NCBI GenBank assembly: GCA_951406725.2 | Contig: OX597821.1 | Span: 39,184,001 to 39,248,000, forward strand | From: Octopus vulgaris | Taxonomy: Eukaryota | DNA length: 64,000 nt | Direction: 5' to 3' | In this document: piece by piece, positions 2,263-23,193 of the stretch | Layout of the letters: every line of letters begins with the position of its first letter | Position numbering within the stretch: position 1 is the first letter of the stretch | The notes under the pieces: generated by a model | Seen by the model: the letters and a program-made list of their open reading frames with translations, nothing else | Databases searched by the model: none | Told to the model about the DNA's origin: nothing | Translations under genes and position numbers: made by a program

Positions 2263-5200
2263 TTTGGTCTAAGTGGTGAAGACAAAATTTCTTAAATGTT
2301 TTCTGTGTCATTTGATGGAGTTTGTTTATAAAGACAGTTTCATGATTTGCTTAATCTGTTATGAAATTTAACTTTATGAGAAAGAGCCAAAGAGATTAAT
2401 TAAAAGATGTAATGATTTTATATAACACTACTCAGCGACATAAAATGTATTGTAAGAGTTGTCCAAAAATACAGAGGCTGGGAAATGTTTCATTAAAGTC
2501 AATATCTCCTCATGAAACATTTTTTTTTAATCCTTGCTTGCCTTGGACAGGTCTTCTCCAACACAGCATCGCACCATTTGTTGCTGTTCCTGTATCTCCT
2601 TCGTGAGGTTCAGCCCCTGAAGATCAGGCCTTACCACTTTGTCTCATGAGCTCGTGGGTTTCCTCCTTCACAGATTCCTTCCACTTGGATTTCATACTGG
2701 ATTAAATACCATGGTATTGTAGTCCTTTTCATTTTAAATACTACAACAAATTTGTTTTCTAATCCTTCCAGCACTGATTATAGAAAGTACTGGTGATATA
2801 CTGCTGTCAGTTTAATTAACCAGATGAAAGTCTGCTTTAATGGAGATGGTGTAGTTAATTAAACTGTGGGGCTTTGGGCTGAAGTTAACAAAAGATATTA
2901 TTAGGTGTTCAAAAAATGAGAAAATGACAGTTTTAGTTGACCTTCACCTTCTTGTGACTCATACGGTTCTGCCATTATGATAAGGGGGAAAACTAATTTC
3001 ATGAGTAGCATCTGTTTTGATAATAAAAGACAAAATTTTCTTTTTAGTAGAAACCAGACAAATTATGGCACCATCAGCTAGAGAAAATCTTGCACCAAAT
3101 CATTTTCAAAAAGAATGAACTGATCCATTTGGCATTGTGCAAGAAGAACGCAAACAAATGTTGTGATTGCTTATTATTTCGATGTAGCGAAAGCTGTTCA
3201 AGAAGCTGAAGTTGTTCCAGAGTCGGGTGTAATTCTCCATGTGAAATCACAGAGACTCACAACTTCATAAAATTTAGACTATATCTACATGTGTTTTTAT
3301 GTAAGTTTGGATTTCTTCATCCATCAGATTTAAATAGCTTCAAAAGATTGCTATCATCATCATCGTTAGTTTTGGCCTGCAAAATTTGGCTTGTATGCTG
3401 TGGTAAGCAACGCTTATCATTACACCTCTATCTTATTAGCTTCATATTGTTGGTCCATTTTAAAATATTTGTTTGCTGTTTGGTTGTGAGTTTATAAACT
3501 CACAAATCTCAACTCTTCATCATCATCATCATTTAGCATCCGCTTTCCATGCTAGCATGGAAATTAATTAGTTTCATCCATGACACGAACACCTGACTGA
3601 CGTACAAACACCCCAAACACCCTTCATCTCTTCCCAATTTCAACATCTATTCATCTATTACCAACTCTGCACTTGTTGGGTCGAATGACTTCGGCCTTAA
3701 GACTACTCCCTACATACCTACAACCTCTTCACTTTCTGGACCCTGTAACACTTCTATCCATCTGATTAGCCAAGGCTCCCCCATCTCTATCAATGCATGA
3801 CAGAGTTAACTCCTGTACTTGTTAAACACTTTATTCTCTCCTTCTCTCAAATGAATATTTCTTGATGTCTGGAAGTTCACAGCAGTGAGTACCATTCCAA
3901 TTAAATGGTCACTTCTCATACTCCTTTGACTATCACAACTATTTCCAGCATCTCAAATATGAACAGACAGTCGTTACTGATAACCTTCTTCTCTCACCTT
4001 AATCTACTTTCCTCCATCAATCATTTTGAATAGAGTCTTATGAAGTTACTTTTAGTGGAAACAGACTCAACAAATATAGTGAAAATAGGGTTTGTTGGTA
4101 CCATCATCAACAAACCATTCAAGCATGTCTGGCCCATAAATCTCTTGGTGAAACCACATATCTACACGGTCCATTTATTTCCTGTCTTTTGTATTAGTGG
4201 CTTCTTGTTAGACTGTATCATTATGGAGGTTCTCTGGCCCCGTACACTACCACCTTGGGTATGCTTCAAGACTCAGCCTTTTCTTTTTATATTCTTGTTT
4301 ATCAACAACATGTTGCCATCACTCTAGCAATGACTACTTCTGTGCAGATGATACAATCTTTTGTTCTCTCTGACCATTCCAACCAAAGCATCATCCACAC
4401 TCAAACTGCGTACATCACACTGAATCCACATTTGAAAAGATACCTTAGGAACATCCTCGAATAGGGTCATATGAATTATGCCCCCTTCTACATCACAAAG
4501 ATAGTATGACTACACACATTTAGAAAAAAATATTATTACACCTCATCCCAACCTCTTACCATGAACAGTATGTTACTAGAACCCTCGCGGTTACTACAAC
4601 TTCTTGGTCTCCTTATTATTGAGGGTCTCTTGTGATGAACACACATGGAAATTGAAAACAAATCAAAACTTACCCAAACCCATCTTTCTTTTCAAGACCA
4701 GGAAATATTCAGCTGTTTACAGTGAATAAATTTCTACAAAACTCAAAGTGTGATCCACATTGGGAAACTGAATCCACACCCTGGATTGTGCTAATACAAA
4801 ATACAAACAGAAATCCAAAGAAGGGCAATCTTGACAGATAGGCCATAGATACACTGTCTCCCCCACCCCCTCTCTCTTCTATCACTGCATCAACATCCAT
4901 TGCTCTTCAAAACTAACTGATTTCATGCCCCATCCACTCTGACACTTTTTACTTATCCATCTTTCTCTTGTCACACATCGTTTTCTCCCTGGTCATGAGC
5001 TAACATTCTACCCATCCTTCCTCTCCCAGAATCTTGGCTCTCTTCCTTGCATATGGCTCCTTCCCTGCAAACCTCAGTTTGCCTCTTTTTGAGAGGAATG
5101 TTAACTTTCTCAATTTTAATGAGGGAAGGTCACAGCCTGATCCTCTTCCTGCAGAAGAATCTAAAATAAAACAAACAAACATTACAAACTGTTGAGTAGC

Positions 5201-6339
5201 ATTAATTGTAAATATTTGCTTCTATAAACTTACAAATGGTCCAGTTCTAATGCCAAGCAAAGAACCAGCTCACATATTTTATATCTCTGCATGATGGTTA
5301 TGTTGCTTGTTTACCAAAGCAGTTTCCTTCAATCTCACATGGAGGTCCATGAGGAATTATAGCTGCAAAATCATTCATTCAGTAATATATCTGTACTTGG
5401 TAACGGATGGAAGTGTTACTACTTAGAATAAAAAATATCAACGGGGATAGTGAACTGAGCCTATACACTGATGACATTTGTCAAACAGGCTTAAACAATT
5501 AGCAATTGCTTCAGAAGGTTCTCCAGATGAGGCATTAATCCTTATTGCCTAATGGCATTGATTAAGAAATAGTGAGATAGATCAGGATGATGACAATAGC
5601 AACAACAAAGGTGAGATGATGATGATGATGATGGTAATAATGGAACAATGATGAGAATGATGCTGCTTCTGCTGCTGCTGATTGTTGTTGTTGTTGTTAA
5701 GCAACAAGACGGGTAAGGGTGATTAGGTGATGGTCTAGGGCTTAGGGGTGGGAGACCCCAGACCTTGGAAAAAAAAAACTTTGGTCATCTTGTTGTAGTC
5801 GAGGTCTCTCTGTTGATGCCCGACACCACTGGGAGGTGGCCCTTGAAGTCGCTGGAAATGGAGATCTCCAGGTCCAAATTCTTGGATGGCTGCTGCTGCT
5901 GATGGTGGTGATGGTGATGATAACAACAATGATGATAATGATCTTCATCATCATGTCAAAGAAATACATTATCATTGAAGCTAATTCTTTTGGCCAGAAC
6001 TGCTGCGAGGTCAGTAAAGTGTTTGTTAAATCTGTGAAAGACTGGAAACTTTATGTAAACAACCTTAGAACAACGAAGAATAATTGCAACTAGATAAAAC
6101 TAAATCTCTCATTTGGTCACACATTACTTTCAGATCTGCAATGTCCTGATGTTTCATGCATTTATTTCGTTTCCACTCTAGTTACGGAGTTATTATCTTT
6201 TTTTGTCAGATTATTCTCAAATACTACGTGACAGTGACATGAAGAATTGTTCAAACTGAAAAGTTGTCAGTTTCTTAGAATTGGATTTTTCTCGAGTTAA
6301 AAGCAAATATGTATGTGTGCAAGTGTGTGACTCTGTGCT

Positions 6340-11051: not shown

Positions 11052-11690
11052 TCATCATCATCGTCATCGTTTAACGTCCACTTTTCATGCTGGCATGGGT
11101 TGGCCTGTTTGACTCAGGGCTGGCAAGCCAGAAGGCTGCACCAGGCTCCAATCCAATCGGGCAAAGTTTCTACAGCTGGATGCCCTTCCTAACGCCAACC
11201 ACTCTGAGAGTGTAGTGGGTGCTTTTACATGCCACTGGCATGAGGACCAGTCAAGCGGTTCTGGCAATGACCACACTCAAAAGGTGTTTTTTACATGCTA
11301 CTTGCATGGGAGCCAGTCCAGTGGTACTGGCAATGACCATGCTTGAATGTTGTTTTTCATGTGCCACTGGCACATGTGCCAGTAAGGCAATACTGGCAAC
11401 AATCACACTCAAATGGTGCTTTTCACATGCCATCAGCACAGGAGCCAATCTGTGGCCCTGGCAATGATCACGCTCGGATGTGCTCTTAACATTCCACTGG
11501 CACAAGTGCCAATCAGGTGGTACTGTCATCAGCCACGTCAGCGATTTTGATTTGTTTTCACTTGCCTCAATAGGTCTTCGCATGCAATGAGGAGTACCCA
11601 TAAGTGGGCCGGTTACACCCCATGCTCAGATATGCTTTTAACGTTCCACTGGCATAAATGCCAATCAGGTGGTACTGTCATCAGCCATGT
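11052..11690 (-). mobile_element. SINE family C with (GAT)n tail and internal ~55-bp minisatellite
   Basis: Starts (CAT)n CGTTTAACGTCC, carries GGATGCCCTTCCTAACGCC, then tandem GTGCTTTT..GTGCCACTGGCAC units. Other copies at 18790-19190, 20050-20205, 25888-26150, 28178-28600, 33951-34410, 37350-37535, 55432-55760 and 58290-58500. Confidence 0.85.
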
Positions 11691-18789: not shown

Positions 18790-19190
18790 TTGGCACCCAT
18801 GAAAGTGGCATGTTAAAAGCACCATTTGAGCATGATCATTGCCAGTGCTGCCTGACTGGTTCCTGTGCTGGGGGCATGTAAAAAGCACTGTTTGAATGTG
18901 ATCCTTGCCAGTGCCACTTGACTGGCTCCTGTGCTGGTGGCACGGAAAAAATACTAGTCAAGCATGGTTGTTGCCAGTGCTGCCTGACTGGCTCTCATGC
19001 TGGTAGCACATAAAAATCACTGACTAAACTCTGCTGAGTGGTTGGCGTTAGGAAGGGTATCCAGCTGTAGAAACTTTGCCAGATGAGATAGGAGCCTGAT
19101 GCAGCCTTCTGGCTTGCCAGCCCTCAGTCAAACCGTCCAACCCATGCTAGCATGGAAAGCGGACGTTAAACGATGATGATGATGATTATT
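18790..19190 (+). mobile_element. SINE family C
   Basis: Minisatellite units, then GGCGTTAGGAAGGGTATCCAGCTGTAGAAAC ... GGACGTTAAACGATGATGAT. Confidence 0.85.
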
Positions 19191-19740: not shown

Positions 19741-20444
19741 CTATTGCTAACATCATTTTCATCATCATATTCCTTATTATTGCTATTAATCAGCTCCATG
19801 TGCTTTGGGTATGTACAGTGTTTTATTCTGGTTTTGATACGTTTTACAACAGTCAAAGTCCATTTTCTGTATTGTGCCTATTTATATGTCCTGTAAGTTA
19901 GGTTATATATTTATATGCAAAGAAAGGAAGCAATTCACAGCAACAATGCTCTTCTCAATGCATTAGACATATACCATTTGAAACAATCTTTTGCACTTCT
20001 TGCATGGATGGCAGACTGTGGACCCATCCTCCACAACAGTTCTGGTGTCACAAAAAAAAGCACTCTGTAAAGTGATTGGCATTAGGAAGGGCATCCAGGT
20101 GTTGAAACCGAGCCAAAGCACATTGGAACCTGGTTCAGCCCCTGGCCTTGCATCTCCTTACAAACCAACCAGGAAAAATGGATGTTAAAATGATGATGAT
20201 GATTATTGTTTGTTAGACTGATACTGTGCTTAGGAGGTACTTCCTTTTCTAATGGTTCTTGATGACTTTGTCTAGTCAATTATCTTTGATTTAACTGTCT
20301 GCATGGATTGGCATAACTCTGAGACTAGCCACTGTCTTATACCGCCTCTCTCCTGCTGCTATTTCATAATGCTGACATAACCTCTGCTACATTATTTACA
20401 TTATTTACAATTGACAGATATTTACCCTCACCTTGTTTGTTGTC

Positions 20445-20490
20445 AACACAATGTTTCAGCTGATATACGCTCCAGCCTTCATCAGGTGCC
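20445..20490 (-). ncRNA. Minimal type I hammerhead ribozyme motif (this copy probably impaired)
   Basis: Minus strand reads GGCAC-CTGATGA-A-GGCTG-gagcgtatat-CAGCT-GAAAC-ATT-GTGTT. Core CUGAUGA/GAAA, stem II GGCUG/CAGCU, stem I GCAC/GUGU. The stem III palindrome reads AACATT instead of AACGTT, a CpG-type change. Confidence 0.75.
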
Positions 20491-20606
20491 TTGGGGAAAT
20501 TTCCAACCTGGGTTATCATTCCTAATGTGTTTTTCGATGTTGTTGTTGTGGTTGTTATTATTATTATTTTTTCCTTCTTTCTTCAAATTTTCTTCCGTTT
20601 CTTGCC

Positions 20607-20667
<61 letters not shown>

Positions 20668-20680
20668 CATTATTATTATT

Positions 20681-20831
20681 CAGGTCACTGCCTAGAATTG
20701 AACTCAGAATCTTGGGGGTTAGTAGCCCGCACTCTTAACCACTACGCCATATGCCTATGGGCATATGGCATAGTGGTTAAGAGTGCAGGCTGCTAACCCC
20801 AAGATTCTAAGTTCGATTCCAGGCAGTGACT

Positions 20832-20833
<2 letters not shown>
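20681..20833. repeat. Head-to-head inverted pair of tRNA-like (Pol III) heads
   Basis: Palindrome centred at 20757/20758. The right arm GGCATATGGCATAGTGGTTAAGAGTGCAGGCTGCTAACCCCAAGATTCTAAGTTCGATTCC has A box TGGCATAGTGG, B box GTTCGATTCC and an anticodon-loop-like CT-GCT-AA. The left arm is its reverse complement with a few substitutions and one indel. Flanked by (TAT)n and (AAT)n. Confidence 0.85.
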
Positions 20834-20879
<46 letters not shown>

Positions 20880-21002
20880 TCAAACAAGATGAGGACAAAT
20901 ATCCGTCAAATGTAAATAATGTAAATAATTCCTCATCTCTTAAATATCGAACTGTATAACCTCTAGTGTTTGCTAGCTCCACATCTCATATGCCTATACT
21001 CT

Positions 21003-22430: not shown

Positions 22431-23193
22431 TTGATGTTTTTTTTTTTTTTTACCACTAAAAGCTTAAAGCTCCTTCTCATGCCATAGAGATTCATAAAGC
22501 TGGTTTCCTGGTTTCTGTGGGGTATATTTTCTATTCTGGTTGATGTTTGTATTTTTTTTACCACTAAAAGCTTAAAGCTCCTTCTCATGCCATAGAGATT
22601 CATAAAGCTGGTTTCCTGGTTTCTGTGGGGTATATTTTCTATTCTGGTTGATGTTTGTATTTTTTTTACCACTAAAAGCTTAAAGCTCCTTCTCATGCCA
22701 TAGAGATTCATAAAGCTGGTTTCCTGGTTTCTGTGGGGTATATTTTCTATTCTGGTTGATGTTTGTATTTTTTTTACCACTAAAAGCTTAAAGCTCCTTC
22801 TCATGCCATAGAGATTCATAAAGCTGGTTTCCTGGTTTCTGTGGGGTATATTTTCTATTCTGGTTGATGTTTGTATTTTTTTTTACCACTAAAAGCTTAA
22901 AGCTCCTTTTCATGCCATAGAGATTCATAAAGCTGGTTTCCTGGTTTCTGTGGGGTATATTTTCTATTCTGGTTGATGCTTGTATTTTTTTTTACCACTA
23001 AAAGCTTAAAGCTCCTTCTCATGCCATAGAGATTCATAAAGCTGGTTTCCTGGTTTCTGTGGGGTATATTTTCTATTCTGGTTGATGCTTGTATTTTTTT
23101 TTACCACTAAAAGCTTAAAGCTCCTTCTCATGCCATAGAGATTCATAAAGCTGGTTTCCTGGTTTCTGTGGGGTATATTTTCTATTCTGGTTG
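22431..23193. repeat. Tandem array, 7 copies of a 108-109-bp unit
   Basis: ACCACTAAAAGC recurs at 22452, 22560, 22668, 22776, 22885, 22994 and 23103. Units differ only in T-run length and a few substitutions. Confidence 0.97.

Follow-up and report, generated by a model that had tools for sequence, protein, structure and literature searches.

We found that a palindromic repeat in the genome of Octopus vulgaris is best explained as a head-to-head insertion of the terminal repeat (pLTR) of an endonuclease-bearing Penelope-like element (PLE), probably copied from a short transcript that would be initiated by Pol III at a tRNA-like head built into the repeat; we put the probability of this reading at roughly 0.55. 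The repeat lies in a stretch of 64,000 nucleotides (hereafter the window; contig OX597821.1, positions 39,184,001 to 39,248,000). Its tRNA-like head, (AAT)n microsatellite, minimal hammerhead and arm are the pLTR, or 3' repeat, of an autonomous PLE, and in short copies of the family the sequence reverses at a single fixed position immediately 5' of the head.

A sequence-only reading of the window had described inverted arms, a minus-strand hammerhead core and a head-to-head palindrome with outward-facing A and B boxes at 20391..20945, and all of these features are real (Table 1). The outer arms (20391-20443 and 20877-20929) are 53 nt long and 89% complementary; the hammerhead core reads CTGATGA (20485-20479) and GAAAC (20457-20453) on the minus strand; and the palindrome, which runs from (TAT)n on the left to (AAT)n on the right, is centred at 20757/8, with A and B box-like motifs in the sequence of both heads, pointing outward. 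The region was thus placed correctly, but its limits were not: one insertion spans 20388-20955, the right arm continuing to 20955 as a tail, and it sits within a 9-bp target duplication.

Table 1. Parts of the palindromic insertion, in positions of the window
Feature	Position	Strand	Remark
Target-site duplication, left 9-bp copy	20377-20385	+	2 extra bases precede the element
pLTR arm without tail, left outer end	20388-20445	-	
Minimal type I hammerhead	20446-20489	-	4-bp stem I, bulged A, long stem II, no loop 3
pLTR middle part	20490-20567	-	ATG at 20519-20517, which in intact copies starts the PLE ORF that runs through the hammerhead
Nested 3' end of an unrelated microsatellite-inserting LINE	20568-20607	-	90% like a piece nested at the same place in locus L008
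(AAT)n microsatellite, left arm	20608-20680	-	(TAT)n in the palindrome as described above
Left tRNA-like head	20681-20756	-	A box 20749-20739, B box 20703-20694
Fold-back centre	20753-20762	.	Decayed form of the family's 10-nt self-complementary junction
Right tRNA-like head	20759-20833	+	A box 20766-20776, B box 20811-20820
(AAT)n, right arm	20834-20877	+	Abuts the arm after a deletion that removed the middle part and hammerhead
Right outer end, consisting of pLTR arm and one-sided tail	20878-20955	+	
Target-site duplication, right 9-bp copy	20956-20964	+	

The window copy is a decayed and likely inert remnant. Its hammerhead has decayed at two CpG sites: the C-A mismatch in stem III noted from the sequence is present, but another pair has decayed at the base of stem II, G-U standing in place of G-C, and had been overlooked. 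The B box of the left head carries two changes relative to the family majority, and a foreign 40-bp piece, which we take to belong under the R4/Dong label, is nested within the left-arm microsatellite; Pfam gave no match for this piece. Neither Rfam at its gathering score nor ARAGORN found a match in the window, Rfam in E-value mode returned only hairpin-driven miRNA matches there, and the hammerhead and heads of the window, folded as single strands, did not outperform shuffled sequences.

Other repeats accompany the element in the window and at related loci. A tandem array of seven copies of a 108-bp unit, with 98% matches, occupies window positions 22431-23193, and two related degenerate arrays with 64-66-bp units (11223-11514 and 18807-19022) probably belong to one SINE-like family. 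The (AAT)n tract of the element has been struck repeatedly by other retroelements (window 20568-20607; L008 900-1490; L015, L016, L012, L018, L022, L125 and L193), including the 3' ends of at least two LINEs that bear restriction-like endonuclease motifs, presumably also R4/Dong, and one non-coding repeat of ~500 bp. The flank of locus L024 (700-1120) encodes a fragment resembling a Helitron/Pif1 helicase.

Searching the 2.8-Gb genome with the hammerhead-arm part gave 3771 first-look candidates, of which 40 were scored and 30 fetched. Counted from the rows, the head was present at 28 of the 29 other loci and an inverted piece at 24 of 29. When the head alone was used as the query, 28 of 29 other loci showed linkage to the hammerhead/arm part, and the parts therefore form one unit, in the fixed order that had been proposed. 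This fixed linkage excludes a SINE pair nested by chance in a hammerhead repeat. The features themselves are no chance occurrence, given the number of candidates and reversed-pattern controls with a count of 0. Segments have a median identity of 94.9% to the family majority (n = 173), and the core CTGATGA is present in 133 of 187 segments. At stem III, C is the majority (136/192), as is G (97/191, with A in 58), so that AACGTT is the family state, restored by the majority as the earlier reading had envisaged, and the A of the window reflects CpG decay. A near-majority copy (L018) has a 4-bp stem I, a bulged A, a 6-bp stem II and no loop 3; the Rfam hammerhead models gave no match even for this copy.

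The autonomous element came to light because the sequence ahead of the head was different at 3 of the first 29 loci, and a search with that sequence led to a Penelope-like ORF. One full-length locus (L079) consists of a partial head, microsatellite, hammerhead, arm, tail, an RT-endonuclease region of ~2.3 kb and then the repeat again, direct repeats thus flanking the ORF region. RVT_1 matched L080 (E 2.4e-9), RT motifs are present in both L079 and L080, and the RT piece has 681 longer homologues, some of which combine RT with a C-terminal GIY-YIG-type domain (PF01541 or that name). By eye, the end of the ORF has a GIY-YIG motif-like region, and it is 55-63% identical to the end of one homologue, P0058; the Pfam GIY-YIG model matched P0058 weakly (E 0.23) and did not match L059. 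The cysteine-rich RT-EN linker, which is of diagnostic value for placement in the Penelope/Poseidon clade, is absent by eye. Stops and frameshifts were present in the PLE ORF copies examined. We are nearly certain that the element is a PLE, and the earlier suggestion of a PLE as the source of enzyme is borne out.

The head lies directly behind the ORF end at 27 of 29 loci selected by that end. In an independent sample chosen by the distant endonuclease of P0058, it lies behind the ORF stop at 26 of 30 loci; at the other four, the head was displaced by an insertion (one), the locus was internally deleted (one) or there was no head (two). This search reached no sister PLE families, only the same family appearing among the 30 loci fetched of 150 matches. 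The ORF-head junction is also bridged by contigs from four runs under four other organism labels. Together with L079, the two samples and the bridging contigs show that the head is part of the pLTR of the autonomous element. The separate non-coding SINE/PLE hybrid put forward from the sequence therefore gives way to a PLE with the same head directly behind its ORF.

The start codon of the ORF is an ATG within the repeat, and the frame runs on through the hammerhead (L149), which falls within the first ~25 codons (L149, L155). Homologue P0058, with 63% RT identity, begins with the same hammerhead-coded peptide. Given this position, cleavage would sever the start codon from the ORF. An internally deleted form of the PLE recurs at six loci (L150, L151, L152, L159, L163 and L169; near locus position 1730), with ORF bases 1 to ~230-257 joined to either the head or the arm and, in some copies, short microhomology to the 5' hairpin of the head; it constitutes a second non-autonomous derivative. 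L080 contains a 930-bp inverted duplication (3738-4669 and 5349-6282; 99% identity) of PLE ORF and host DNA joined, which is younger than the PLE element.

These data bear on whether the short copies could instead descend from an independent tRNA-headed SINE lineage, or from a palindromic master with a borrowed PLE end, mobilised in trans. Short copies outnumber long ones in head-selected samples, a deletion with 5-nt microhomology recurs in several copies (L087, L094, L095, L113 and L119), and short genomic copies may well act as secondary sources. However, an identical head occurs in the autonomous element, in both locus samples and in the junction contigs of all four other runs. Both alleles of both diagnostic sites are also found in ORF-linked copies (12 A/8 G and 11 A/5 T), and the tail side and the deletions differ between palindromes, unlike what is expected of copies of one palindromic master. 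We therefore consider a separate lineage improbable.

The inverted pairs have the anatomy of single insertions. Of 94 inverted pairs, 42 had a flank duplication of at least 8 nt, compared with a mean of 1.4 (maximum 6) in 200 shuffled pairings, with a few loci possibly counted twice. Both ends were complete in 66 of 81 pairs, and in 62 of these 66 the tail was on exactly one side. At two polymorphic sites outside CpGs, the alleles of the two arms matched in 27 of 32 pairs and in 19 of 21 pairs, respectively (Fisher p ~0.001 each); the window copy, whose own two arms differ at one of the diagnostic sites, is discordant and counts against our reading in this respect. The two arms are thus one insertion with a target duplication, with alleles usually common to both, and arm pairs come mostly from one template or were homogenised later. 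Published PLE insertions likewise have an inverted pLTR, an optional 31-bp tail, an 8-10-bp duplication and an 18-38-bp palindrome at the pLTR 5' end, and self-priming has been proposed for them (PMC3846280; PMC8557442). The palindrome is accordingly a known product of inverted-pLTR insertion and does not speak for a designed divergent promoter.

Two near-complete arms were kept at only 3 of 48 centre-selected loci. The side of the tail was not tied to the orientation of the loop (10 vs 6, p 0.45; 16 of 49 loci). Within a subset, deletions favoured the arm opposite the loop (11 vs 2), but across all 33 oriented loci the bias was weak (20 vs 10, p 0.10); the arm with the tail was more deleted (14 vs 5, p 0.06). 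A strict one-molecule fold-back predicts neither the untied tail side nor the weak deletion bias. In a check for annealing of two cDNAs (heteroduplex), the loop ratio CATG:CACA was 98:59 in palindromes and 97:83 in ORF-linked copies (Fisher p 0.12). An arm deletion running from immediately behind the A box to the arm through 5-nt microhomology recurs in L087, L092, L094, L095, L113 and L119.

The turn point is sharp. Exact-pattern counts gave 344 loci that fold back at a single position immediately 5' of the head, as well as 393 ORF-linked junctions, compared with none for either pattern when reversed. By eye, 25 of 29 head-selected copies end no more than ~10 nt from the start of the head, in a sample that favours palindromes because these have two heads each, a bias that weakens this count as support for our reading. 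The ends of ORF-linked copies are scattered over more than 1.5 kb. Most simply, the turn is accounted for by an RNA 5' end ~6 nt before the head. The A and B boxes lie where a Pol III promoter would set the 5' end, which fits a defined RNA 5' end at the head. Pol III transcription from the head is plausible, and we lean slightly towards a Pol III start there. A short RNA beginning ~6 nt before the head would be reverse transcribed by the PLE RT, and the self-complementary cDNA end, which is capable of a weak hairpin (-1.3 kcal/mol) as well as a 10-bp dimer (-11.8), would fold back and prime the inverted arm. The endonuclease would then resolve the intermediate, so that a tail remains on one side. 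In the left arm of the window copy, the minus strand, which would be the transcribed strand, has only two TTT runs and no T4; this favours our reading and settles an earlier caveat about T runs.

One possible alternative is that the same PLE forms these copies with no role for Pol III. The head would then be a passive, captured tRNA relic, and the hairpin between ORF and head would halt the RT on full-length RNA or else, in the manner proposed for rotifer PLEs, prime synthesis on antisense RNA. The tRNA resemblance is indeed weak: the near-majority head matched positions 8-63 of the Rfam tRNA model with 11.4 bits (E 6.5), and ARAGORN at its default score found no tRNA in any locus examined. 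Nor were the boxes more conserved among copies than the rest of the head, with mismatches at 3.8% (A box) and 2.9% (B box) against 3.6% at other head positions. An imperfect hairpin is already present at the turn site in the ORF-linked form, palindromes at inverted junctions and self-priming have been described for PLEs, and PLEs for which no tRNA head is reported also have the 18-38-bp palindromes at the pLTR 5' end (PMC3846280), so a hairpin alone can fix the turn. By contrast, none of the junctions was a hybrid retaining the outer, ORF-side half of the natural hairpin, compared with 344 exact fold-backs, although this absence could also stem from trimming of an unpaired cDNA end. In addition, five copies without an inverted part (L120, L124, L127, L141 and L147) start no more than 2 nt from the first base of the head, and the turn coincides with the expected start of a tRNA-type promoter. 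We give the account without Pol III a modest chance. Three RNA runs labelled as another organism had reads equally on both strands and no pile-ups of ends, and were uninformative on a Pol III start or cleavage.

Processing of the short form by the ribozyme, as first suggested from the sequence, is unlikely. The outer ends of copies lie at reference positions 135-155 or 179-183, whereas the predicted cleavage site is at 89; the head thus stays joined across that site to ends ~50-95 nt beyond it, from which we infer that the templates were uncut. A head-to-head copy has one dimer-type hammerhead per strand and can therefore form no dimer in cis, and the minimal PLE hammerhead is reported to lack activity as a monomer and to be only weakly active as a dimer (PMC4209133). 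The hammerhead likely rides along uncut in the short form and, by analogy with PMC4209133, probably serves the full-length tandem element. It is therefore highly improbable that the repeat is a retrozyme-like or host-functional RNA locus processed by the hammerhead, and the chance nesting considered above is equally so. The family majority does have an intact minimal core, and animal retrozymes have been proposed to be pLTR derivatives (bioRxiv 10.64898/2026.07.22.740005). Yet retrozymes are head-to-tail tandems, whereas the element here is arranged head-to-head, neither strand has more than one hammerhead, its ends lie away from the cleavage site, and the window copy is marred by two broken pairs and one nested insertion. 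No head-to-tail tandem array of hammerhead units was found in the window.

If Pol III does start at the head, the family may be an autonomous PLE with a working tRNA-type promoter in its own pLTR, in which every insertion could spawn SINE-like RNAs that become fold-back palindromes, in effect a self-generated SINE; we hold this view tentatively, at a little under even odds. A working promoter of this kind would show how SINE-like elements can arise with neither a separate SINE origin nor a LINE partner. The mechanism of tandem and inverted PLE insertion has been stated to be undefined (PMC8557442), and hundreds of insertions turning at one base beside a possible Pol III promoter offer an extensive natural data set, with a hot spot confined to a single base at which the formation of inverted PLE ends can be dissected.

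Much of this anatomy is already published for PLEs, namely the head-to-head copies, the one-sided tail, the junction palindromes and the pLTR hammerheads; what is unusual here is the A/B-box head inside the pLTR and the sharp turn at its start. Our family shares with endonuclease-bearing PLEs that carry a C-terminal GIY-YIG domain (Penelope/Poseidon type, including Pen2, Pen2a and Pen3a of Adineta vaga, PMC3846280; overview in PMC8557442) a single RT-EN ORF, direct and inverted pLTRs, head-to-head 5'-truncated copies, a 30-40-bp one-sided tail, a short target duplication, a palindrome at the pLTR 5' end and a pLTR that overlaps the ORF start. The octopus family differs in that its pLTR opens with a tRNA-like A/B-box segment and (AAT)n, whereas published pLTR promoters are of Pol II type; tRNA is not mentioned in PMC3846280 and has one unrelated mention in PMC8557442. 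A full-text literature search, in which most matches were at the level of title or abstract, returned no description of a tRNA head within a PLE pLTR. The annotation of octopus repeats lists 190 Penelope-like families, with hammerheads unmentioned in the text available (PMC13282606), and squid hammerheads have been counted only, as far as the available text goes (PMC6962438).

The minimal hammerheads described for metazoan PLEs (Cervera and de la Pena 2014, PMC4209133) share with ours a short helix I, a long helix II with an unpaired 5' base, palindromic positions 15.2-16.2 and the lack of loop 3, and opposite-strand pairs 100-700 bp apart were noted there; by contrast, no tRNA-like neighbour is described in the available text, and the window copy is decayed. 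MRC1 (PMC8557442) and the animal non-LTR retrozymes (bioRxiv 10.64898/2026.07.22.740005) are likewise short non-coding units with a PLE 3' end, but they are arranged head-to-tail and no tRNA head is reported for them, the accessible text of the preprint making no mention of tRNA. In Schistosoma, Sm-alpha and Sj-alpha (PMC6765202) similarly place a Pol III-type promoter before a hammerhead in a short mobile repeat, whereas the promoter here is a candidate. Those repeats form head-to-tail tandems that are cut to monomers, with no autonomous parent bearing the same promoter stated in the available text, whereas the window element has a head-to-head layout and forms the end of an autonomous PLE of its own.
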